Positions 1-9,483 of a DNA stretch of 9,483 nt are shown here, piece after piece (the stretch's first letter is position 1; each line of letters begins with the position of its first letter). Position numbers and translations under genes: made by a program. Under the pieces are notes generated by a model. It made no database searches and was not told where the DNA came from. It worked only from the letters and a program-made list of their open reading frames with translations. The DNA lies in the IMG/VR virus record IMGVR_UViG_2778261058_000006, positions 1 to 9,483 of that record; one strand, given 5' to 3'. This DNA comes from a virus. Its lineage: Duplodnaviria; Heunggongvirae; Uroviricota; Caudoviricetes.

Positions 1-68
1 CACGACCAGGCTTAAGGACCACCAGCCCGAGTTCCGGTACCGGAACAGGTCGAAGCAATACCCGCACG

Positions 69-347
69 TTACCTCCAGATCCGTTGCTGGAATGTGCGGG
101 ACGGACGCGGTGGGCGTTCAGAGTAAGGCAGTCTGACTGAGATGATCCAGTGTCGGAAGTCGAGGCTGAGGTCTTTCTGAAACTCGTAACCACGTCTGCG
201 GTAGTTCTGAATCAGCCATTCGGCCTGTTCTTCAGTGCATGGACCATGCTGGAACCAGTCAGATTTGAATGCATGAGAACGCCGCCCGCGCCTGCTGGCA
301 AGGACGGCGAGATTATCAGAATTGTGTGATCTGGAATTTTGCGCCAT
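69..347 (-). CDS. Hypothetical prophage protein (92 aa); C-terminal third is low-complexity and may reflect a frameshifted or truncated gene
   Basis: ATG at 347..345 preceded by a GGAGAAAG SD-like motif. N-terminal two thirds look protein-like. Stop TAA at 71..69. The two other minus-strand frames stay open from about position 100 to the window edge. Confidence 0.35.
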   Translation of the reverse strand: MAQNSRSHNSDNLAVLASRRGRRSHAFKSDWFQHGPCTEEQAEWLIQNYRRRGYEFQKDLSLDFRHWIISVRLPYSERPPRPSRTFQQRIWR

Positions 348-413
348 CGGCTTTCTCCGGTGGCACAGTGTTACTCAGCAGGGGTTCGGCCCTGCGCTGA
401 ATTGTAGATGAAT

Positions 414-674
414 TCACTCATCTTCAAAAGCAGAAAAACCAGCCTTAAGCCCAGCTTCTTTCAGAGACTGCAATGATGTGACAAATTCATTTTCACGCAA
501 AATAAAACCATCCGTCACCAGTCCATCCACAAAGTAAATTAACGCCGCCCCACTCTTCCTTTGTTGAGACTGTAAACATTTAATACGGCAGTGGCTGACA
601 ATAGCGCCATTCTCAACGCGCACAGTATAGAGGCCATCTTCACTAAAAATTTCAACCAATTCTTCGATTTTCAT
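414..674 (-). CDS. Hypothetical small prophage protein (86 aa)
   Basis: ATG at 674..672 with a GGAAGGA SD about 9 nt upstream (the ORF-track start at 677 is TTG). Clean ORF downstream of the hok terminator. It sits where rem lies in K-12 Qin, but identity was not verified. Confidence 0.5.
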   Translation of the reverse strand: MKIEELVEIFSEDGLYTVRVENGAIVSHCRIKCLQSQQRKSGAALIYFVDGLVTDGFILRENEFVTSLQSLKEAGLKAGFSAFEDE

Positions 675-863
675 CAACAGAATCCTTCCAGATAAATAGC
701 ACTCCCCTGCTCGGGGTCCATCCCTCTTCTCCCTGCGCGCTACTTAAGAGCCTCGATTCTAGCCGTGAAGACATACCGATCAACAGCAATAAGCCACCTG
801 AATAACAGAATCAGCCAGCCACATCAGTACAACCAGATGCATCATGCTCACCGAAAATAAACA

Positions 864-887
864 ACAAAAAACCCGCCGAAGCGGGTT
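864..887 (-). terminator. Rho-independent terminator downstream of the hok-like gene
   Basis: On the minus strand: 7-bp GC-rich stem AACCCGC/GCGGGTT with TTCG loop, followed by a U-run (complement of the A6 run at 866-871). Confidence 0.6.
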
Positions 888-955
888 AAGTGCGGGTGCG
901 TTGAGGATGCCTGACACATCAGAGGTGGCGAGGGATTTCTCCCCCGCCGGGTCTC

Positions 956-1111
956 TTACTCCTCAGGTTCGTAAGCTGTGAAGACAGCGACCTCCGTCTG
1001 GCCGGTTCGGATTCGTACCTCGCAGAGGTCTTTCCTCGTTACCAGTGCCGTCACTATGACGGTTAAACAGATGACGATCAGGGCGATTAACATCGCCTTT
1101 TGCTGCTTCAT
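956..1111 (-). CDS. hokD: Hok/Gef-family type I toxin (51 aa, single-TM membrane peptide)
   Basis: Translation MKQQKAMLIALIVICLTVIVTALVTRKDLCEVRIRTGQTEVAVFTAYEPEE matches my recollection of E. coli HokD/RelF and is close to HokC/Gef. AAGGAG SD 9 nt upstream of ATG 1111..1109. In-frame upstream GTG at 1138 gives a Mok-like 9-aa extension (MPKGKEKQA). Confidence 0.85.
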   Translation of the reverse strand: MKQQKAMLIALIVICLTVIVTALVTRKDLCEVRIRTGQTEVAVFTAYEPEE

Positions 1112-1380
1112 AGCCTGCTTCTCCTTGCCTTTCGGCACGTAAGAGGCTAATCTTCAGTTGTCGAGACATAAGACTGGCCTCACTTCGATTTATAGTCGGG
1201 TGGGGCTTTTCTCTATCTGCCTTTGGTGGCATGCCCGAGACAGATAGCCTCAAGCACCCGCAGCAATTCTACTTAACTCTCCTTTTCCCGCAAACCGTTT
1301 TTATCCCCAACGGCAATTCGAATACACTACCAGCGCCACCGCCAGTGCAATTCCTACCGTTGTGAATGCTTCAGGCCAGG

Positions 1381-1947
1381 TCATCGTAAAATATCCTCCG
1401 CGCTTATCAGTCCGTTTCGCTTCAGGTAGACCATCGCCTTCTCCGGTAATTTGCAGTCCGGCTTCGCTTTCCTCAATTGGCTAACCAGTTGTTTAATCAG
1501 CATTGTTAATTCCCGTACCTGAACGTCCCTTTTGGTATCCTCATTGGTGAGGATACCATCGTCTTTCCCCTGAAGCATGGCGGCGCAGCAGGCGTTCCAT
1601 GAAATTTCCTGAAGGGAACGACGAATCTGTGTGCTGCATATACTCCTCCCTGACTCCTGGCTGTTAAACCATGTTTCAAATTCCGGCACTACCGTCGCTG
1701 GCGGAGCAGCGTATAGCGGCACGTATATTTCCGGTTCCTTGTCTGCTCCTGGTTGCCCTTCCAGTGAGAATGTCTTTCCGGTAAATCGATTCATATAAAG
1801 CATTGGCTCTGCTTCCAGTGATGCCAGTGCGATACGAAACACATTGGCAAGCAGGCTGTCTGAAGATTGGTTATCGTGCGCCGGGTCGCTCAGGAAACCA
1901 GTGATGAATGATTTAATCTCCGCGTTTTCTCTGGTAATAGTGGTCAT
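1381..1947 (-). CDS. Hypothetical prophage protein (188 aa)
   Basis: ATG 1947..1945 preceded by AGGAGA SD, which lies in the last codons of the upstream gene (stop 1951..1949). Long ORF on the operon strand. Confidence 0.6.
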   Translation of the reverse strand: MTTITRENAEIKSFITGFLSDPAHDNQSSDSLLANVFRIALASLEAEPMLYMNRFTGKTFSLEGQPGADKEPEIYVPLYAAPPATVVPEFETWFNSQESGRSICSTQIRRSLQEISWNACCAAMLQGKDDGILTNEDTKRDVQVRELTMLIKQLVSQLRKAKPDCKLPEKAMVYLKRNGLISAEDILR

Positions 1948-1948
1948 A

Positions 1949-2167
1949 TCAGTTCTCCTTATACGGATTAATTTTATTGTGCAGTGTGTTGAACAACGCC
2001 CATACCACGTCGTTATACAATTCAATAACTGGCTCAATTATTTTCCCGATTGCCCAGACAAAAATTAGCGGGGATATCGGTATCATCAACACGATAAACA
2101 GAATGAGAAACAAAAATTCTGTCGCTCTACTTTTTCGCGGATATTCTTTTCTGAATAATGTAGGCAC
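1949..2167 (-). CDS. Small putative membrane protein (about 72 aa, one predicted TM helix), AT-rich
   Basis: GTG 2167..2165 sits 6 nt after an AAGGAG SD and 1 nt after the stop of the upstream gene. Hydrophobic stretch FLFLILFIVLMIPISPLIFVWAIG. The ORF-track start at 2188 is a TTG inside the upstream gene. Confidence 0.4.
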   Translation of the reverse strand: MPTLFRKEYPRKSRATEFLFLILFIVLMIPISPLIFVWAIGKIIEPVIELYNDVVWALFNTLHNKINPYKEN

Positions 2168-2168
2168 A

Positions 2169-2528
2169 TCACTCTCCTTTGATGCCAATGTTTACAGCCT
2201 GGCAAGCCTCTTTGAGCACCCAGTCAACAGCGTCTTTCCATGCTCCGGTTTCGACTGGCGGATTTTCACGCTTAACCTGTTCATAGAAGCGCACTGCTTT
2301 AATCAATCCTTCTGGTGTCAGTGGCACAGGCGGGGCAGTGAATAACGCCTGAATTTCATAGCTCGGCCTGTCGTTGCAATCCTCTTTTGTCGGTACATAT
2401 TTCCAGTCACCAACCCACGACTCCCCCTGAGAGTCCGTAACGCCTTTTTTCACGTAGCGATATCGCCATGCAACTGGTTTTGCCTGCCCTGCCGTTTCAT
2501 GTCCTTCCTGATAATTAATCTCGCTCAT
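2169..2528 (-). CDS. Hypothetical prophage protein (119 aa)
   Basis: ATG 2528..2526 overlaps the stop of the upstream 58-aa ORF (ATGA). Clean ORF on the operon strand. Confidence 0.6.
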   Translation of the reverse strand: MSEINYQEGHETAGQAKPVAWRYRYVKKGVTDSQGESWVGDWKYVPTKEDCNDRPSYEIQALFTAPPVPLTPEGLIKAVRFYEQVKRENPPVETGAWKDAVDWVLKEACQAVNIGIKGE

Positions 2529-2701
2529 TCATCGCCCCACTCATCACAATATGCTTCGACCGGAGTTTTTCCTGCTTCGTAGTCATCACGCCATGCTTCA
2601 GCATCAGCGGCACTTCCACCGCGTAACTCTGCATAGTCCATTAACAGTTCATGCCATTCTTCAAAACTGACGTTGTATTTAGTTGAACCAAAATCAGCCA
2701 T
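2525..2701 (-). CDS. Small acidic hypothetical protein (58 aa), below the ORF-track length cutoff
   Basis: Hand translation gives MADFGSTKYNVSFEEWHELLMDYAELRGGSAADAEAWRDDYEAGKTPVEAYCDEWGDE. GAGGAAG SD about 9 nt upstream. Start overlaps the upstream stop by 8 nt and its stop overlaps the next ATG (ATGA), filling an otherwise unexplained gap. Confidence 0.4.
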   Translation of the reverse strand: MADFGSTKYNVSFEEWHELLMDYAELRGGSAADAEAWRDDYEAGKTPVEAYCDEWGDE

Positions 2702-2876
2702 TTTGTTCTTCCTCTTCGTCTTTTATTTCGTGATATGAGTAATTGCAGCAGTTAAAGAAAATTTCTTTTGCTTCGTCATGAATTTCATCAGGTGTTGCGT
2801 CATCGTCCACTTCGAATACATCCTCAAAATCTCCACCAGCTATTCCAGTTTCAATAATTATTTTGAACTTTCGCAT
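2694..2876 (-). CDS. Small acidic hypothetical protein (60 aa)
   Basis: ATG 2876..2874 (internal Met of ORF 2694..2957). A GC hairpin lies just upstream; the SD is weak (GGCGG). Confidence 0.45.
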   Translation of the reverse strand: MRKFKIIIETGIAGGDFEDVFEVDDDATPDEIHDEAKEIFFNCCNYSYHEIKDEEEEQNG

Positions 2877-3004
2877 TTCACTACCGCCCTTTCGGGCGGC
2901 CTCCGGATGATTTGAGGGTGCAGGAATCCCTCCGGTTAAGGATTTAATAAAAACCACTTCTGATTTAAATTTTCAGTGTTTTGTTGCCAGGTGATTTATC
3001 GCCT

Positions 3005-3316
3005 TTACGCTTCAGCCTTATTTCGCAACCAGACACAAACCGGGCCATCTTCGGTGTCATGTATTGAACCAATAAACCATCCATCGCCCTCTGGTCGTTC
3101 CGGTTTCCAGGAGGCAATATCGGGACCATCTGCATCAAGATTAAAATCATCTTCATCCATAGTTCTGATGGTCCATTGAAGATTATTTTCCTCCATCCAT
3201 GCGTTAAACTCTTCCGTTGAAATATGTTCTCTACCATCACAGAATTTTTCATATTCAGGATGCGTCCAGCAGCCATATTCATCACGTACTACTGGTATTT
3301 CTTTAATTTCATTCAT
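3005..3316 (-). CDS. Hypothetical prophage protein (103 aa)
   Basis: ATG 3316..3314 with GGGAGAA SD; overlaps the upstream gene stop by 8 nt. Confidence 0.55.
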   Translation of the reverse strand: MNEIKEIPVVRDEYGCWTHPEYEKFCDGREHISTEEFNAWMEENNLQWTIRTMDEDDFNLDADGPDIASWKPERPEGDGWFIGSIHDTEDGPVCVWLRNKAEA

Positions 3317-3563
3317 TTCTGTTCTCCCACGTTTTCAGACTTTCACCACAGAACGGACAAAATGAAACCCGCACTGGTGATTTAGAAAATTCACCGGAAC
3401 GCAACATCACCAAATCAGGGCCGCGAGTTAAACTCTCATTCCAGATTTTGTATATCAGCAGACCTTTTCGCGTCGTGTATTCAGCATCATGCTCAAGGGA
3501 TTTTGCCAGTGCTGCACATGGTTCTATCTTGTTGCCATTAATTTGGCATTTTGGCTCACTCAC
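3309..3563 (-). CDS. Hypothetical small protein (84 aa) with paired Cys motifs (possible zinc ribbon)
   Basis: GTG 3563..3561 with AAGGAGG SD 6 nt upstream; GTGA overlap with the upstream stop. Cys at C-x9-C near the N-terminus and C-P-F-C near the C-terminus. Confidence 0.55.
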   Translation of the reverse strand: MSEPKCQINGNKIEPCAALAKSLEHDAEYTTRKGLLIYKIWNESLTRGPDLVMLRSGEFSKSPVRVSFCPFCGESLKTWENRNE

Positions 3564-4198
3564 TGTTTACCTCCTTTTCGAAGCTGTTCGGCGATATCTT
3601 CGAGAACGCCATCAGAGAATGAGCGGTCAAAATCGCCTTCCGGCGCATTAGCCATAAACTCAGTAGAGGTAAGAATCATCCGGGCAATATCCGCGGCGTT
3701 CTTCGCAGTATCATCAATAAAACCAGCTTCCCAGGCAGCCAGCATTCTGTTCGCCACAAAGTAAGCGCCCTCCTTGCGTGCTTCAGTCTTCACTTCAGCC
3801 AAGAAAGCGTCGGTGGCTGGGGTTTGCGGCATCCTTCCGTCTATTGCGCAGATATACGCATCAGATAGTTCATCCTGCTCGCCATCAAACACGTAGCAAC
3901 TCTGTACGATAAATTTATTCAGCCCCGCATTCTCCGCCGCAAGCGCAGCAAGATTAGTCTCCAGCTCTGCAATGCGTTTGCTTTGGGCTTCCCGTTCATC
4001 CAACAGTGCCAGCACGGTAGCCGGATTGGCTGCTGCTATGAATCGCTTATTGGCGCGATTATCTGGTCCTGAGCATGATGCTATGTAGTAATTTGCGTTC
4101 AGTCCGGCATCAGCAATTAACCCATAATCATCAGAACACCATTCGCCAGGGGTTGCATTTTCTGCCGCCATTCGCAGTGCCTGGTAATTAATGTTGCT
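3560..4198 (-). CDS. Ea22/Ead-like prophage protein (about 212 aa)
   Basis: GTG 4198..4196 with AGGAGG SD 6 nt upstream. N-terminal motif [20 protein letters not shown] is typical of enterobacterial Ea22-like proteins (recalled family knowledge). Overlaps the upstream gene stop by 11 nt. Confidence 0.6.
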
Positions 4199-4931
4199 CA
4201 CTGGTTTCCTCCTGGCAAAGCTGGGCGACAATATCGCGATATTTATTCAGCTCCCGCAGCGCGGCACAGACTCGCTCCCATTTCCGGATATCACTTTTCG
4301 CCCGACGCAGTTCGCGGTTTGCCTGTCGCAGCGATGGCAGAACCAGATTATCCACTCGCTTCTCAAGCGGCTGCACAATGTCCGCCACAGTTTCTGTTTT
4401 AATATCTTCCTGTGTTGCAGCTTCCTGTACTGGTAACGCAACACATGCAGGCTGAGGAAAGGCTTTACCATCAGTTTCCGCTACCGATGCCGCTTTCGGC
4501 TCTGCTGGTAAATTACCGCCCGGCATGCAGTAACGAAATTTACCGTTCTGATTAACACGAATCAGACGACCTTTGCTGATTGCCATTGCCAGCGTTGAAG
4601 CCACTTTGCGGGATGTTGTACCGAACAGCGTAGCCAGTTCATCCGCCGTTTGTGGTCCGCGTTGTTCAATCGTCGCGGTTAAATCGTACTCTGAGATTTT
4701 CGCCACTGTCGCCGTGGTGGTTTCTTCCGGCTGTTCTTCTGGCGCTGGCTGTTCCTGCTGAACGTTGTTATCAGCCACACGCCAGGTGTATACGCTTTTA
4801 TCAACGAAGCCAGCCTTTTTCAGTTCCCACAGCTCGTTCAGTACTTCTTCACGACTGATATCAAGTCGCGCAGCCAGCTCTACCGACGTGGCTTTTCCCA
4901 TCGCTTTCAGTGCGTCAAAAACAGTCTCCAT
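4188..4931 (-). CDS. Hypothetical prophage protein (247 aa) with two winged-helix-like segments
   Basis: ATG 4931..4929 with GGAGG SD about 9 nt upstream (the ORF-track start at 4997 is upstream of this RBS). Function unknown. Confidence 0.6.
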
Positions 4932-4965
4932 TAAAATTTCCTCCCGGTAAAAATTACTTCTCAAC

Positions 4966-5631
4966 TCAAACAAACCCAGCCGCTTTCCGGCGTTCATATT
5001 CCTGTTTCAGTAACTCAATTGGCGTTGGCCCCGACGGGCGTTTGGGTGCCGCCAGTTGTCGCCGGACTGGCGGAACGCTCAGGCCGTTACTAACATGCTT
5101 TGCCCATTTCGTCAGCTGCCGTTCTGCAAGCTGTTTTAATTCCCCTTCGGTCATCTGACGCTCAATCCCCTTATCACGCATCTCGAGGCAAATGTGATAC
5201 AGCACAGGCTGAGACCACGGGTACTTATCACTTCCGTCGTATCGCCAGGACTCATTGCGCCAGCGGCGGTACTCCTCCATCACAGCATCCACCGTCAGAC
5301 CAAATGGATTTGCCCCACTCTCCGAAATCAGCGCCACAAACTCAGCCAGGTCCGGAGGCCATGTTTCACCCGCCCGGCAGCGGTCCATGCACTGGCGGCA
5401 GACCAGCCGGATTTGCTGCTCAGTCATCGCGCCAATCTGTGCAATCCAGAGCTTCGAAGGTGCGGCCCCGTTCTTCTGGGTCCAGCGGTTCGAATAAACC
5501 TCCCCCATGAGTTCCCACAGCTTCCACGCCGTTTCCGTCGCTGATAAATCCGTTTTCACGTTCCCACTGCTCACGTGCTGCCCGAATTTCCTGAACTGCC
5601 CGTGATGCGGTGCCGCCTGGTGCTGCTGCAT
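4966..5631 (-). CDS. Lambda P-like replication protein (DnaB helicase loader)
   Basis: Recalled lambda P shares a YPW-containing segment and a similar C-terminus with this ORF. ATG 5631..5629 has a GGGGGTGA SD-like motif. Start is uncertain; alternatives are 5508 and 5427. Confidence 0.65.
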
Positions 5632-6460
5632 GGCTCACCCCCTTGCTGACTGGTTTAACCTGCGCCCTGACGTGATGTACGTGACGGGCGAATTTCTGCT
5701 CCCACTGAACCTGCGTGAAAACTTTCCCCTCCGCTGCCCAGTAGTCCCGGAAGGCGGCAAGTTCAGCTGGTGTAAATTCCGGCTCCGGCAGAGCCATCCC
5801 CCACAACGCAGCCCGTCGTCGAAAATCCCGTGACGGATGCCAGCTATCGGTCATCGGAAATTTTCCGATGGGCTCGCTCAGGCCATCCAGGAATACAGGG
5901 GATGTTGCCTGTAACGACAAAACTTCCTGCTCACTGGTCGGAGCACTCTCGTGTGCGTTATGTGTGGGGTTTAGATCTTTGGGTTCCTTTGGGTTCCGTG
6001 ATCCGTTTTTGGGTGTCTTTGATGGAAAATTTGGGTGTCTTTGGTTATTTTCCATGCAGAAAAGAGTTCCGTTTTTGGGGCTGTTTTGTGCTGAAACATA
6101 ACCGTTTTTGGTACTGTTTTTATTAACAGCACCAATTTTACCCACCTTTAAAGACTCCCGTTTTTGGGTGTATTCAGGCTCGGCAACACTTTCTTCTACA
6201 CCGATAAGTCGGTACACCACGATTTGCTTTGTTCGGCCTTTTCTCTCACCGGTATCAATAATTAACCCAATCTCCATCAGGTGTCGTAAGCTGTCCTGCA
6301 CAGTCTTTTTGTTCAGTTCCGTTACTTCTGCCAGTGCAGATACAGACGGGTATGCGCACAAATCGGCACCGCACATATCAGCAAGCCAGGTCAATACTGA
6401 CTTACTGGATGAACTGCCGGTTTTCACCTTTTTAGCCCATCGTAGTGCATCGATACTCAT
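5420..6460 (-). CDS. Phage replication initiator (O-like): N-terminal HTH, iteron-encoded linker, DnaT-like C-terminal domain
   Basis: Domain-like layout by eye. Iteron repeats lie inside the coding sequence, as in lambda O. Start is uncertain: ATG 6460, ATG 6523 or TTG 6535. Confidence 0.7.
   Translation of the reverse strand: MSIDALRWAKKVKTGSSSSKSVLTWLADMCGADLCAYPSVSALAEVTELNKKTVQDSLRHLMEIGLIIDTGERKGRTKQIVVYRLIGVEESVAEPEYTQKRESLKVGKIGAVNKNSTKNGYVSAQNSPKNGTLFCMENNQRHPNFPSKTPKNGSRNPKEPKDLNPTHNAHESAPTSEQEVLSLQATSPVFLDGLSEPIGKFPMTDSWHPSRDFRRRAALWGMALPEPEFTPAELAAFRDYWAAEGKVFTQVQWEQKFARHVHHVRAQVKPVSKGVSHAAAPGGTASRAVQEIRAAREQWERENGFISDGNGVEAVGTHGGGLFEPLDPEERGRTFEALDCTDWRDD
5978..6171. repeat. Iteron cluster (putative replication origin) inside the O-like gene
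   Basis: CCGTTTTTGG(G) at 6003, 6069, 6102 and 6159. TTTGGGTGTCTTTG at 6008 and 6031. Tandem TTTGGGTTCC at 5978 and 5988. Followed by a moderately AT-rich stretch at 6111-6150. Confidence 0.55.
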
Positions 6461-6983
6461 ACGAACCCCAGACAGATATTTGTTTATCTGCAAAGTAATG
6501 TTGGTATTGCTGACGATACGCATGCTTGAAAGCAATAGCTTTTTCTATAAGCTCGTCAGTCTCACGTTCCACAACAGCTGGATCCGCAAAAAGCAGCCCG
6601 GACTCCACCACATCGCCATATTCTTTGTTTAACCCGGCGATCATGTACGTAATGCTTTTTCCGTCAGTAATTTCACAATACAACCTGAAATCGCTGATCC
6701 GGATAGCCTCCATAATTGCCGGAATCAGCGCCGTGAATTTTTCCCGCTTATCCCTGGTGTCGATAGCTTTCCAGCGTTCAAATATTTTCACCCGGTTAAC
6801 GCCCAGTGCCCGTTGATCAACCGCGCCATCATCAAACGTGACGCGTTGAACATCAATGTTCGGGCGTTCTTTCAGAGCCCAGAATGCTTCCGTGATTAAT
6901 ATCGTCGCCTGCTCCTGTGTCATTCCTGGTCGGCATACCCAGGAATCCAGAGCCTCACAAGCCTGTTCAGGGGTGATTTTCAT
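6432..6983 (-). CDS. Hypothetical protein in the cII position of the early operon (183 aa); possible regulatory protein
   Basis: ATG 6983..6981 overlaps the 3' end of the DicC-like gene by 17 nt; its own 3' end overlaps the O-like gene. Weak SD; an alternative start is ATG 6923. Confidence 0.5.
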   Translation of the reverse strand: MKITPEQACEALDSWVCRPGMTQEQATILITEAFWALKERPNIDVQRVTFDDGAVDQRALGVNRVKIFERWKAIDTRDKREKFTALIPAIMEAIRISDFRLYCEITDGKSITYMIAGLNKEYGDVVESGLLFADPAVVERETDELIEKAIAFKHAYRQQYQHYFADKQISVWGSYEYRCTTMG

Positions 6984-7195
6984 TGTTCAACCGCCCCGCA
7001 CGCTTTGCCTTACGATATTCGTCATAAACTTTGGGATCGTACTGAAGCTCCCCGCCGGATGCCTCCTGTAGACGCATCGCGCGACCTTCAGGAACCAGTT
7101 CCCCCCATGCAGCAATGCTTGCCAGCCTAACTCCTGCGGCATTGGCAATGCTTTGTTTTGCTGCCAAAAAACGCTATAGCATCAATTTTCAACAT
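6967..7195 (-). CDS. dicC: DicC-like (Cro-analogue) repressor with an apparent +1 frameshift near the 5' end; possible pseudogene
   Basis: Strong AAGGAG SD plus ATG 7195..7193 opens a frame encoding MLKIDAIAFFGSKTKHCQCRRS, then stops. The conserved body (...AAGVRLAS...GRAMRLQEASGGELQYDPKVYDEYRKAKRAGRLNNENHP) is in the next frame, which has a stop at 7176..7174 and only a TTG at 7167 without SD. Confidence 0.6.
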
Positions 7196-7271
7196 ATCGA
7201 GCTCCTTAGATTTTCCTAAGGAAACTAGATCGTAGAGAAACCTAAGTCAAGAAAAATTAGAATTCCCTAAT
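7196..7271. promoter_or_regulatory. Divergent promoter/operator region between the DicC-like and DicA-like genes
   Basis: Perfect palindrome TCCTTAG-N6-CTAAGGA at 7203-7222, overlapping the DicC-like SD. Palindrome ATTAG-N6-CTAAT at 7256-7271, abutting the DicA-like ATG. Extra CCTAAG at 7241-7246. Confidence 0.5.
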
Positions 7272-7679
7272 ATGAAAAACGAAACCTTCGGTGCTCGCCT
7301 CTTACATAGGCGTAAAAAATTAAAACTGTCTCAGGCCGCATTAGGTAAGCTGGTCAAAGTGGCTCACGTAACAATTTCTCAATGGGAAAGAGATGAAACA
7401 CAGCCGGCGGGGAAAAGATTATTCGCACTGAGCCAAGCGCTTCAGTGCTCACCGACTTGGCTTCTTTTTGGGGATGAAGATAAACAACCAGGCGAACCGA
7501 TCCCGGATAATCAGCCAGCCATTCTGACAGAAGATCAAAAAGAGTTACTTCAACTGTTCGACGCACTGCCTGAGTCAGAGCAAAAAGCCCTGTTGTCAGA
7601 GATGCGTGCTCGAGTTGAAAATTTCAACAAACTTTTTGAAGAACTACTCAAAGCTCGCAAAAGAAGCGCAAACAAATAA
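7272..7679 (+). CDS. dicA: DicA-like HTH (Xre/cI-type) prophage repressor, 135 aa
   Basis: N-terminal HTH (LSQAALGKLVKVAHVTISQWER) and a C-terminus resembling recalled DicA. Divergent from the Cro analogue. No SD upstream, so possibly a leaderless-type start. Confidence 0.85.
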   Translation: MKNETFGARLLHRRKKLKLSQAALGKLVKVAHVTISQWERDETQPAGKRLFALSQALQCSPTWLLFGDEDKQPGEPIPDNQPAILTEDQKELLQLFDALPESEQKALLSEMRARVENFNKLFEELLKARKRSANK

Positions 7680-7744
7680 TCCCCTTTTTTCTCCACACCC
7701 TGTAATAAAAAGCACAAACTTTCAAACACTTGTGTTTTTTACAT

Positions 7745-7810
7745 CAAAAAACTTAGGTTTTTCTACATAAAAACCTTGACCACCCACCTTAGGTTATTCT
7801 AAATTTCATT
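7745..7810 (+). promoter_or_regulatory. Putative DicA-controlled promoter/operator for the ydfA-B-C operon
   Basis: Direct repeats CTTAGGTTTTTCTACA (7752-7767) and CTTAGGTTATTCTAAA (7788-7803) flank a TTGACC -35-like hexamer (7776-7781). They share a CTTAGnTTnTTC core with the operator palindrome at 7203-7222. The -10 element is not cleanly identifiable. Confidence 0.4.
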
Positions 7811-7881
7811 CATCAAGACACCGCACGGTGTTCTCAGCAAACAGTTCCGCCACCCCGGCGTTAAGGGGAAATGAGGTCAAC

Positions 7882-8037
7882 ATGGATACTATCGATCTTG
7901 GCAACAACGAATCTCTGGTGTGCGGCGTGTTCCCCAACCAGGACGGTACGTTCACCGCGATGACATATACCAAAAGCAAAACGTTTAAAACCGAAAATGG
8001 TGCCCGTCGCTGGCTGGAAAGAAACTCAGGTGAGTGA
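7882..8037 (+). CDS. ydfA: YdfA-like small prophage protein (51 aa)
   Basis: ATG 7882; MDTIDLGNNESLV... matches recollection of Qin YdfA. Position and size fit the Qin gene order. Confidence 0.7.
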   Translation: MDTIDLGNNESLVCGVFPNQDGTFTAMTYTKSKTFKTENGARRWLERNSGE

Positions 8038-8038
8038 T

Positions 8039-8167
8039 ATGGATTTCGACGCAATCATGAAAAAGGCTTACGAAGAATACTTCGAAGGCCTTGCTGAAGG
8101 CGAAGAAGCTCTCAGCTTCAGTGAGTTTAAACAGACGCTTTCCAGTCCGGCAAAATCTAACGGCTGA
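8039..8167 (+). CDS. ydfB: YdfB-like small prophage protein (42 aa), absent from the ORF track
   Basis: ATG 8039, 1 nt after the ydfA-like stop. Hand translation MDFDAIMKKAYEEYFEGLAEGEEALSFSEFKQTLSSPAKSNG; stop TGA 8165-8167. Confidence 0.6.
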   Translation: MDFDAIMKKAYEEYFEGLAEGEEALSFSEFKQTLSSPAKSNG

Positions 8168-8196
8168 TAGGCGAAGCAGCACCGCGAGGAATCAGT

Positions 8197-8415
8197 ATGC
8201 AGAAACGAGAACCCGTCATCATCGCGCCAGACTATACCGATGATGAACTTTATGAGTGGATGCGCCAGAAAATTAATGCAGCGCAGGACCTGAAATGGGC
8301 CAATGAAGCCAGGGCTAAGCAGGCTGAAAATCTGTCCGCTCTGGAGCAGGATATCACCAGGCTGGAAAAAGCGGCGGCATTAAGCATTGCCAGAATGATT
8401 ACATACCCACGTTAA
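8197..8415 (+). CDS. ydfC: YdfC-like small prophage protein (72 aa)
   Basis: GAGGAA SD then ATG 8197. Size and position fit the Qin gene order. Confidence 0.7.
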   Translation: MQKREPVIIAPDYTDDELYEWMRQKINAAQDLKWANEARAKQAENLSALEQDITRLEKAAALSIARMITYPR

Positions 8416-8437
8416 TAGCTAACCAACGAGGCTAATA

Positions 8438-9043
8438 ATGGAATTTAAAGATTTACCAAAAGAAATCCAGACAATTGCTGCAACGACTCTCGGTGATAGC
8501 CTGGTGAAAATTGACCCCGCATGCACCAAAAAAGAAACCATCGATAATATGGTTCGTAATGTGCGCAATGCTTTTTCTGGGCTATATGGTTCTGATAATC
8601 AAAAGCAGGAAAGCGATGTTAATGAACGGGTAATTTCTGTTTGCCTGAATGGCCATGTTCTTTCATCAATCAAAACAGAAACAGCGACAGCCATCGATTA
8701 CCTTTGCATTGTACAGAGCCTTTTTGATGCCCTGTTTCGTTCAGTGAATTTAAAAAATGATGCAAATCTGCGAGGGCGCACAATAGCACATTCATATGCA
8801 CATACTTTAGGCTCTGTGGATGTTAAAAATAATACCCTGCAAGTTACTCTCGAACATTCACCGCAAGAGTTGAAAACGGAAAAATACGATGCAAATAAAA
8901 ATAATAACGATAAACCTGATTTGTTTATTATCAGCTCAAAGCTACTGGAAGTCATGAAGAGCGAGCTTGAGAAACACGACATCAAGCCCACTCCTGTATA
9001 TTTACGATGGATAATGAAGATTATTGATGCTTCTCTGCCATAA
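8438..9043 (+). CDS. Hypothetical protein (201 aa), AT-rich accessory gene of unknown function
   Basis: ACGAGG SD about 8 nt upstream of ATG 8438, 22 nt after the ydfC-like stop. Uninterrupted ORF to TAA 9041-9043. Codon usage is visibly AT-rich (many AAA/AAT/GAT), roughly 35-40% GC by eye. No match to anything I recognise. Confidence 0.6.
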   Translation: MEFKDLPKEIQTIAATTLGDSLVKIDPACTKKETIDNMVRNVRNAFSGLYGSDNQKQESDVNERVISVCLNGHVLSSIKTETATAIDYLCIVQSLFDALFRSVNLKNDANLRGRTIAHSYAHTLGSVDVKNNTLQVTLEHSPQELKTEKYDANKNNNDKPDLFIISSKLLEVMKSELEKHDIKPTPVYLRWIMKIIDASLP

Positions 9044-9212
9044 GCTTCTTATCCAGGAATGCTTCAAATTTATCGTAAATGACGTCAATCTCCCCCATTT
9101 GCTCGGTAGCAATAGAAATGGCGTGAGATGGTGAAATGGGCACCTGGCAATGGGCGTTAAAGGTTTCCACAGCCAGGCGCATAAGGAACATTACTTTTTC
9201 TTCTTGTGTCAT
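9021..9212 (-). CDS. Hypothetical small protein (63 aa), convergent with and overlapping the 201-aa gene
   Basis: ATG 9212..9210 with GGAGGG SD about 6 nt upstream (ORF-track start 9221 is a GTG inside the SD). Stop at 9023..9021, overlapping the 3' end of the 201-aa gene by 23 bp. Confidence 0.5.
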   Translation of the reverse strand: MTQEEKVMFLMRLAVETFNAHCQVPISPSHAISIATEQMGEIDVIYDKFEAFLDKKLMAEKHQ

Positions 9213-9348
9213 AAATTTCACCCTCCTGAGGGTTGGTAATTAAGGAGTTCTCCACGGGTCAGGTGGAGTGCGTGCGCCGGACACGGGTGAGCATCCGGCA
9301 CTGGCAGTTTACTGAAAGGATATATCCCTGAAAAGTCAGGGCATAACA

Positions 9349-9418
9349 CGGAAGCGCACAGCGAAGTCATTCCTCCCTTTGTTGTGTACCACTGACATCT
9401 TCGTCTGTGCGCTTCCGG
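9349..9418. repeat. Long imperfect inverted repeat (potential RNA hairpin) upstream of the 63-aa gene
   Basis: Left arm CGGAAGCGCACAGCGAAG (9349-9366) pairs with right arm CTTCGTCTGTGCGCTTCCGG (9399-9418), one bulge, about 32-nt loop. A second small hairpin CCCTGA-AAAG-TCAGGG lies at 9326-9341. Confidence 0.4.
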
Positions 9419-9483
9419 TTGTGGCACTCCGCGAAATGGCGCGGCGGTAAGTATGGCGAGGCTATCCTTTCCTCGAGATAACA

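Follow-up and report, generated by a model that had tools for sequence, protein, structure and literature searches.

The window examined here is a stretch of 9,483 bases of virus DNA (IMG/VR record IMGVR_UViG_2778261058_000006, positions 1 to 9,483), and the element of interest in it is a cluster of direct repeats (iterons) at 5945-6176, a likely replication origin lying within the coding sequence of a phage replication initiator. The initiator gene is followed by the gene for a P-like helicase loader, whose ATG overlaps the initiator stop codon (ATGACTGA, 5420-5427), and is preceded by YdaT-family/CII-like and Cro/DicC-like genes and a divergent DicA-like repressor gene. The coordinates are collected in Table 1.

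Table 1 Features of the initiator gene, its repeat cluster and the neighbouring genes (aa, amino acids; ssDNA, single-stranded DNA).
Feature	Positions	Strand	Description
Replication initiator gene	5420-6460	-	346 aa; ATG at 6460, stop 5420-5422
N-terminal winged-helix DNA-binding domain	6176-6460	-	aa 1-95; AlphaFold2, Foldseek, weak Pfam HTH_36
Iteron 1	6152-6172	-	core 6158-6167; coding strand TACACCCAAAAACGGGAGTCT, read T-Q-K-R
Iteron 2	6096-6116	-	core 6102-6111; coding strand CAGTACCAAAAACGGTTATGT, read T-K-N-G
Iteron 3	6063-6083	-	core 6069-6078; coding strand CAGCCCCAAAAACGGAACTCT, read P-K-N-G
Half/degenerate iteron	6025-6043	-	half-copy 6030-6043; coding strand ACACCCAAATTTTCC
Last iteron	5997-6017	-	core 6003-6012; coding strand GACACCCAAAAACGGATCACG, P150-K151-N152-G153
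Tandem 10-mer element	5945-5997	-	two GGAACCCAAA-type 10-mers at 5977-5997, then AGATCTAAACCCCACAC
DnaT-like ssDNA-binding domain	5660-5872	-	aa 197-267; Pfam PF17948, E 2.8e-17 (residues 201-267)
P-like helicase loader gene	4966-5427	-	153 aa; Pfam Phage_lambda_P PF06992, E 3e-16; PHROG 109 'P-like helicase loader', E 7e-54
YdaT-family/CII-like gene	6432-6983	-	Pfam YdaT_toxin; PHROG 163 'CII-like transcriptional activator', E 5.5e-41; directly upstream of initiator
Cro/DicC-like gene	6967-7167	-	Pfam P22_Cro; homologue annotated dicC in strain A36
DicA-like repressor gene	7272-7679	+	Pfam HTH_3/Phage_CI_repr; annotated dicA in strain A36 and K-12; divergent

When the whole window was scanned, the exact 10-mer CCGTTTTTGG was found on the plus strand at 6003, 6069, 6102 and 6158, all within 165 bp, with no further exact copy on either strand. 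In 2000 dinucleotide-preserving shuffles the exact core occurred on both strands 0.04 times on average (maximum 2); with up to one mismatch, 5 occurrences were observed against 0.92 expected, a count reached in none of 200 shuffles. Each copy is an imperfect dyad of the form NNNCC-AAAAAC-GGNNN, and all share a single orientation, in which the A-rich strand is the coding one. Since TTTGGGTGTCTTTG occurs exactly at 6008 and again at 6030, the segment 6030-6043 is a half-iteron; its counterpart in relatives is the variant CCAATTTTGG or CCCAAATTTGGG. An earlier note on this DNA had counted four or five repeat copies inside the initiator gene, which agrees with the four exact cores, the half-copy and the two tandem 10-mers found here. 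The cluster occupies gene positions 285-483 of 1041 (27-46% of the initiator gene), directly after the N-terminal domain, and its AT content of 57-70% is the highest in the gene, with the peak 40-mer (70%) at 6100-6139, between iterons 1 and 2. The iterons in the window are spaced by 22, 44, 33 and 56 bp. Helical phasing, with spacings near multiples of 11, was considered and is not relied on; relatives use 18, 24, 26, 33 and 45 bp. A perfect 9-bp inverted repeat (ATGGAAAAT at 6022-6030 and ATTTTCCAT at 6047-6055) flanks the half-iteron; it is kept in six aligned E. coli alleles and is not evident in other genera. A terminator scan of 4900-7500 gave one match, at 6065-6082 on the plus strand, which is the dyad of iteron 3 plus a T run; this count is below the shuffle expectation.

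The initiator was modelled with AlphaFold2 on 24 homologues, and the model consists of an N-terminal winged-helix domain, a disordered linker, a DnaT-like domain and a C-terminal tail. The protein is as long as its RefSeq counterpart, a 'DnaT-like ssDNA-binding domain-containing protein', and falls into PHROG 1032 'replication initiation protein' (E 2e-87), with weaker N-terminal matches to 'replication initiation O-like' PHROG families. The winged-helix fold comprises residues 1-88, with four helices and a beta hairpin (predicted local distance difference test score, pLDDT, 62-83), and residues 36-67 match Pfam HTH_36 weakly. A Foldseek search with this domain returned phage helix-turn-helix initiators, for example a Stx-phage 'replication protein O' (E 2.7e-6) and a 'lambda GpO N-terminal' protein (E 5.5e-5), and its identity across genera is 33-72% in the alignment. 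Linker residues 89-195 have a pLDDT of 24-33 and are predicted to be disordered. The repeats correspond to codons 96-162, wholly inside this low-confidence linker, where K, N, G and P make up 46% of the residues versus 18-19% in the remaining protein; the earlier description of a low-complexity linker rich in these four residues is thereby borne out.

In the C-terminal half, residues 197-266 match the C-terminal ssDNA-binding domains of DnaT in PDB entries 6aep and 4ou6 (E ~1e-20). This domain is modelled with a pLDDT of 81-89, and Foldseek aligned it to DnaT with a TM score of 0.9, a root-mean-square deviation of 0.9 Å and 57-58% identity in the alignment. The full-length DnaT equivalog NF002770 gave 94.6 bits against a cut-off of 201, with residues 194-270 alone matching. 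The likeness to E. coli DnaT is confined to its C-terminal ssDNA-binding domain (residues 197-267 here), and no other domain is held in common; DnaT itself lacks a winged-helix domain for origin binding, and its role is in restarting replication and not in initiation at an origin. Pfam Phage_rep_O (PF04492) was not matched by the initiator at E <= 0.01, in a library where lambda O scored 5.7e-36. A BLASTP comparison with lambda O gave 24% identity over 79 aa (E 0.007) and hhalign a probability of 3%, and the likeness is confined to the fold, with Foldseek E values of 3e-6 to 6e-5 for GpO N-terminal-type proteins. The earlier note had called the protein 'O-like', a term that can be kept for an analogy or a very distant relationship; it does not extend to Phage_rep_O membership or to the C-terminal domain, which is DnaT-like.

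Next to the last iteron, TTTGGGTTCC-type units stand in tandem at 5977-5997 (period 10, 2.1 copies, 100% match; Tandem Repeats Finder, TRF). The DNA following the last iteron reads GGAACCCAAAGGAACCCAAAGATCTAAACCCCACAC in coding orientation, and the coding strand of 5945-6002 is 76% A+C (A25 C19 G9 T5). Counterparts in relatives are AACCAGTCATAT three times in phiV10, AGAACCAGTCAT(T) twice in Vibrio phage H20, GAATCTA three times at 13 bp within AT-rich DNA in Acinetobacter prophages, and GGAATCTACCAAGGAACCATAAAGATCTAAAC in Enterobacter. The tandem 10-13-bp RAAYC-type repeat is a feature defined in this analysis and not derived from the literature. Among 52 distinct relatives, the tandem periodicity (11-13) of the 40 nt past the last iteron-like site exceeded the 95th percentile of controls in 69%, and RAAYC occurred there 1.42 times per 40 nt versus 0.18 in control windows, an 8-fold difference. 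The element abuts the last iteron across genera and in genes with unrelated C-terminal domains, and may be the second component of the origin, a candidate site of unwinding or helicase entry. GATC is depleted in the window (16 sites in 9483 bases), and between 1077 and 6580 it occurs only at 5974 and 6000, on either side of the tandem 10-mers beside the last iteron. AAAGATCT is kept at the same spot in relatives from Enterobacter, Kluyvera, Serratia, Edwardsiella and Vibrio phage H20, and the GATC pair may indicate a link to Dam and SeqA.

The distribution of the iterons was examined by searching residues 1-97 of the initiator against a single genome from each species, which yielded 16 loci with N-terminal domains 41-76% identical. 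In 12 of them, from Scandinavium, Enterobacter, Kluyvera, Plesiomonas, Edwardsiella, Serratia and Arsenophonus, CCAAAAACGG (at most one mismatch) occurs one to six times directly after the N-terminal domain and in constant orientation. Its count in all enterobacterial loci and in Arsenophonus is three to six, and the 5-kb flanks of these loci are nearly devoid of it. The same core, in the same position and orientation, is found in the isolated phages phiV10 (6 copies), Acinetobacter AP22 (3), Edwardsiella EPP-1 (4-5) and Vibrio H20 (5-6), the last with five to six copies of CCGAAAACGG at a 24-bp period. A second core cluster in Arsenophonus nasoniae (L020) was considered as a separate site and rejected: the initiator gene is duplicated there in tandem (1196-1891 and 2501-3244), and each copy has its own iteron cluster. 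The repeat finder gave no clear iteron family in the Rac-type (DUF1376) initiators L002 and L003.

The cores are not tied to one reading frame. In the window iteron 1 is read Q-K-R and the others K-N-G, the frame of iteron 2 being one base off that of iteron 1; across the 12 loci, 43 copies lie in one frame and 18 in another. Among the viral loci described below, at least two frames are used in 42 of 111 and all three in 13 of 111, counted among the matches listed. The last iteron and the DNA downstream of it align between Enterobacter-type and Edwardsiella-type genes despite their different reading frames. Within the core tripeptides the synonymous codons are nearly fixed: lysine is AAA in 46 of 46 cases, compared with an AAA to AAG ratio of 159:155 elsewhere in the same genes, asparagine is AAC in 54 of 55, glutamine is CAA in 14 of 14, and arginine is CGG in 14 of 14, compared with 52 of 277 elsewhere. 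Because the cores are conserved across genera, are read in several frames, fix their synonymous codons and have a specificity that tracks the N-terminal domain, the repeats point to a DNA-level element, and the pattern indicates that selection on them acts on the DNA and not on the peptide.

The relation between iteron and N-terminal domain can be followed in divergent loci. Acinetobacter prophage relatives (47-55% identical) carry GTnCCAACAAYGG in place of the CCnAAAACGG core. E. coli initiator genes with the same C-terminal half and P gene and an unrelated N-terminal domain carry GTCGTGACA repeats at the equivalent place, and the nucleotide homology between the two E. coli kinds starts at about 5976-5980, where the cluster ends on its promoter-distal side. 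These comparisons indicate that iteron specificity travels with the N-terminal domain. The GTCGTGACA-type repeats form two clusters about 260 bp apart (3075-3124 and 3345-3405 in L004; 3086-3133 and 3354-3414 in L005), one in the linker and the other inside the region coding for the N-terminal domain; after the linker cluster comes DNA of higher AT content, AGATAAAGATACAGATAAAGAATTAAA.

Viral contigs with three exact cores inside about 100 bp numbered at least 120. In 118 of the 120 listed, an open reading frame (ORF) spans the core cluster, and 111 of these 118 matched a hidden Markov model (HMM) of the N-terminal domain, with the cores in the linker behind that domain and in one orientation; one further spanning ORF is a truncated member of the same family. 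The median number of iterons per viral locus is six, again among the matches listed. Of the ORFs without an HMM match, two have exact CCAAAAACGG cores in the linker and are true members of Pfam Phage_rep_O (E 1.5e-31 and 1.5e-27). Clustering of the protein parts beyond the linker, on its C-terminal side, gave at least six unrelated groups, with 55 (DnaT-like, window included), 30, 7, 4, 4 and 2 members. Being joined to at least six unrelated C-terminal families, the N-terminal domain and its iterons therefore behave as a portable origin-recognition module. Initiators with CCnAAAACGG iterons, the one in the window included, form a large and coherent set in phages for which no published description was found. 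Literature searches on DnaT, iterons and prophages, on replication modules and on the phiV10 and epsilon15 origins returned no account of this origin type, and among the best-ranked matches for the core 10-mer none was on phages.

We interpret 5945-6176 as the probable replication origin of a Qin-type lambdoid prophage (DicA/DicC immunity), located inside the gene of its own initiator, a reading strongly favoured by the comparisons, and the repeats in it are almost certainly the binding sites of that initiator. By analogy with lambda, transcription from the cro-side promoter would produce the initiator and traverse the origin. The winged-helix domain would then bind the four to five dyad iterons, probably as dimers, to form a nucleoprotein complex, and the DNA would open at the adjoining A+C-rich element with its tandem 10-mers. 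The C-terminal half of the initiator (DnaT-like domain and tail) would hold the opened strand and recruit the P-like loader, which in turn would bring host DnaB. We infer binding, opening, loader recruitment and any activity in the window's prophage from this analogy. The element would be lambda-like in its working and is placed outside the lambda O/ori-lambda sequence family, because Phage_rep_O was not matched, no adjoining AT-rich block was found and the C-terminal domain is DnaT-like.

The comparison with lambda shows likenesses at several levels. The lambda origin, like those of 933W and P27, and the window both have direct repeats that are A-tract imperfect dyads (TCCCTCAAAACGAGGGA in lambda, ACACCCAAAAACGGGnGT in the window). 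The annotated lambda iterons, ATCCCTCAAAACGAGGGA and variants, lie at 39-48% of O in several frames and share the centre CAAAACG with those of the window. In both cases the iterons follow the N-terminal DNA-binding domain inside the initiator gene, have a single orientation and encode a flexible linker, and one copy in each has an AAATT-type centre. An overlapping P-type loader gene lies downstream and repressor, cro and cII-like genes upstream, so that the order repressor, cro, cII-like, initiator, loader is that of lambda. The P-like gene claimed by the earlier note is confirmed by its profile matches (Table 1); its product has 24% identity to lambda P over 113 aa. The differences are as follows: the window initiator is outside Phage_rep_O, with a DnaT-like C-terminal domain instead of that of lambda O; the P-like protein has 153 aa versus 233 aa and aligns with lambda P residues 94-202 alone; and the start-to-start spacing of the iterons is 22-56 bp versus 20-24 bp. 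In lambda an AT-rich block adjoins the iterons (PMC7466680); in the window it is lacking, and its place is occupied by A+C-rich DNA that contains two tandem 10-mers. The lambda arrangement of an origin within O, as the earlier note had put it, thus holds for the iterons inside the initiator gene and the loader gene next to it, but not for the AT-rich block.

Among the closest known systems are also those of PHROG 1032 and relatives, namely phages of the phiV10/epsilon15 type, EPP-1, H20 and AP22. They have in common with the window the family of the N-terminal domain, the CCnAAAACGG core with its orientation and position, and tandem repeats after the last iteron, which are 12-13-mers there; phiV10 also has the DnaT-like domain and the P-like loader. 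They differ from it in iteron number and spacing (6 at 18-45 bp in phiV10, 5-6 at exactly 24 bp in H20), in the sequence of the tandem element, and in the C-terminal domains and partner genes, which vary; the AP22 initiator gene adjoins a DnaB-like helicase gene. Plasmid iteron origins (RepA/pi/RepE, RepA_N) likewise combine a winged-helix initiator with direct repeats, and the N-terminal domain gave weak fold matches to the plasmid Rep N-terminal domains 5kbj, 4pql and 4pt7 (E ~1e-2). The iterons of plasmids usually lie between genes, together with DnaA boxes and AT-rich 13-mers, whereas those of the window are coding, with no DnaA-box-like site in or next to the gene.

Several observations weigh against an origin at 5945-6176. 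The relationship of the initiator to lambda O could not be demonstrated by sequence, with either BLASTP or hhalign. A nearest-neighbour stability profile revealed no discrete AT-rich block on either flank of the cluster; the promoter-distal flank (5940-5999) is 50-53% AT, and none of the window's 12 least stable 40-mers lies within the initiator gene. The AT-rich stretch that the earlier note had placed after the repeats is therefore weakly present, in the composition of the cluster itself, and not as a separate block. No DnaA-box-like site was found in or near the initiator gene, with TTATCCACA at up to one mismatch occurring only at 1301, 4348 and 7689. In the viral contigs, 7 of the 118 spanning ORFs had no match to the N-terminal-domain HMM, and in L065 and L107 three exact CCAAAAACGG cores lie in an unrelated protein of about 480 aa with a tandem PKTERPA peptide repeat; possession of the core is therefore not enough for a diagnosis. 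Binding or replication experiments on any member of this iteron type were not found in the literature searched. Finally, one or two cores are altered in those E. coli alleles that are commoner, which could reflect relaxed constraint in resident prophages.

The initiator gene was found at a coverage of at least 80% in 907 of 5426 complete E. coli genomes, or about one in six, mostly with 95-99% identity; carriers include O157:H7, O145:H28 and O111 strains. Six E. coli alleles were aligned. The closest one (strain A36, 98.7%) and that of the window have four exact cores, iteron 2 is CCGAAAATGG in the commoner alleles, and the O157:H7 allele has, besides the altered iteron 2, CCAAAAACAG as iteron 3. 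The first and last iterons are invariant in all six. Residues P150-K151-N152-G153, encoded by the last iteron, are also invariant in 24 homologues of 53-96% identity and are the best conserved part of the linker; the last iteron aligns with the last iteron of the Enterobacter, Edwardsiella and Acinetobacter loci, and iteron 1 is kept as CAA-AAA-CGG across genera. The repeats also cause rearrangements. In E. coli 7_12_15B (L027) one 10-bp tandem unit is lost within the equivalent of 5978-5997, with a frameshift that splits the initiator gene; in protein cluster P0005 (E. coli and Shigella) 22 aa (66 nt) are missing between iteron 3 and the last iteron; and Enterobacter homologues have about 20 extra linker residues with additional repeat copies.

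This variation bears on the strongest alternative, that 5945-6176 is an origin by descent which is inactive in the window's prophage, the prophage being defective or the module decaying. The nearest named relatives, the PPompW prophages of O145:H28 (96.6% identical in the initiator gene), are excised upon mitomycin C treatment without being packaged and are described as defective in late functions (PMC8112680), and the altered cores, the 10-bp slippage and the 22-aa linker deletion in other E. coli alleles point in the same direction. In the window, however, neither the initiator (346 aa) nor the P-like gene (153 aa) is truncated, the four cores are exact and the cro, cII-like and repressor genes are intact, while defects in late genes are irrelevant to the activity of an origin; we consider an inactive origin unlikely.

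According to a second alternative, the repeats bind the initiator mainly for control, by autoregulation, titration or exclusion of related phages, and replication starts elsewhere. Plasmid iterons are known to serve as both origin and control elements, and the cluster has no neighbouring AT-rich block or DnaA box. Inhibition of related phages by cloned lambda origin regions is reported (PMC3349717, PMC4488673). Against this, the window contains no second core cluster, the conserved tandem element abuts the last iteron as expected of an unwinding or loading site, and the position agrees with that of the mapped lambda origin, which makes a mainly regulatory role very unlikely. That the repeats are a mere by-product of an x-K-N-G peptide repeat in a low-complexity linker, with no function at the DNA level, is scarcely credible: the cores do encode a K/N/G/P-rich linker predicted to be disordered, and three of the four lie in one frame, giving KNG, but a second frame turns this 10-mer into QKR, the frame of the last iteron differs between Edwardsiella-type and Enterobacter-type genes whose DNA aligns, viral loci often have their cores in more than one frame, synonymous codon choice is fixed down to the rare CGG, and the orientation is constant.

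Beyond the origin reading of the window itself, we tentatively propose a generalization that is possible but, on balance, doubtful. The set may represent a widespread two-part phage origin, not found described, in which an array of CC-AAAAAC-GG dyad iterons is combined with two to four tandem 10-13-bp RAAYC-type repeats, both parts travelling with a portable winged-helix N-terminal domain that occurs in fusion with six or more unrelated recruitment domains. The tandem repeats, and not AT-richness, would mark the site of opening or helicase entry, and the opened strand would, among initiators of the DnaT-like subclass, be held by the initiator itself.

That an origin may lie inside the initiator gene is textbook knowledge since lambda. 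The element is in this sense an ordinary kind of phage origin, with a sequence type of which the literature searched gave no description. The initiator product is annotated as 'DnaT-like ssDNA-binding domain-containing protein', and the records inspected have no origin feature over the gene. The position of the origin and the domain that would read it provide a handle for predicting which resident prophages amplify after induction, a process that matters for gene dosage and for the mobilisation of prophage-borne virulence genes. Replication modules could also be classified by iteron specificity, and synonymous recoding could remove the origin while leaving the protein unchanged.

The Cro/DicC-like gene is the first of the operon that runs through the candidate origin, and a simple scan of 4900-7500 for a sigma-70 consensus found no promoter-like site. 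RefSeq homologues of the P-like gene are 462 nt long, and a longer ORF of 221 aa (4966-5631) carries the P frame 204 nt further upstream. PHROG 15931 (482 positions, unknown function) spans the C-terminal half of the initiator and the whole P-like protein as one unit, so versions in which the two are fused, or mis-called as fused, exist.

K-12 Qin aligns with the window at 1-748, 853-1125, 6704-8435 and 9231-9475, and has no match to 1126-6703, the part that contains the initiator, the loader and the repeats; the contrast with K-12 Qin drawn by the earlier note is upheld. In complete E. coli genomes, at most 72-74% of the window is found in one place, at 90-93% identity, and the early region appears to be a mosaic of modules that occur separately in many prophages. 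The segment 8436-9230, also absent from K-12 Qin, contains a plus-strand ORF of 201 aa (8438-9043) belonging to PHROG 1363, for which Pfam and PADLOC gave no match, and includes the least stable and most AT-rich 40-mer of the whole window (8893-8932). The segment resembles a moron-type insertion, placed between genes of the ydfC side and those of the dicB side.

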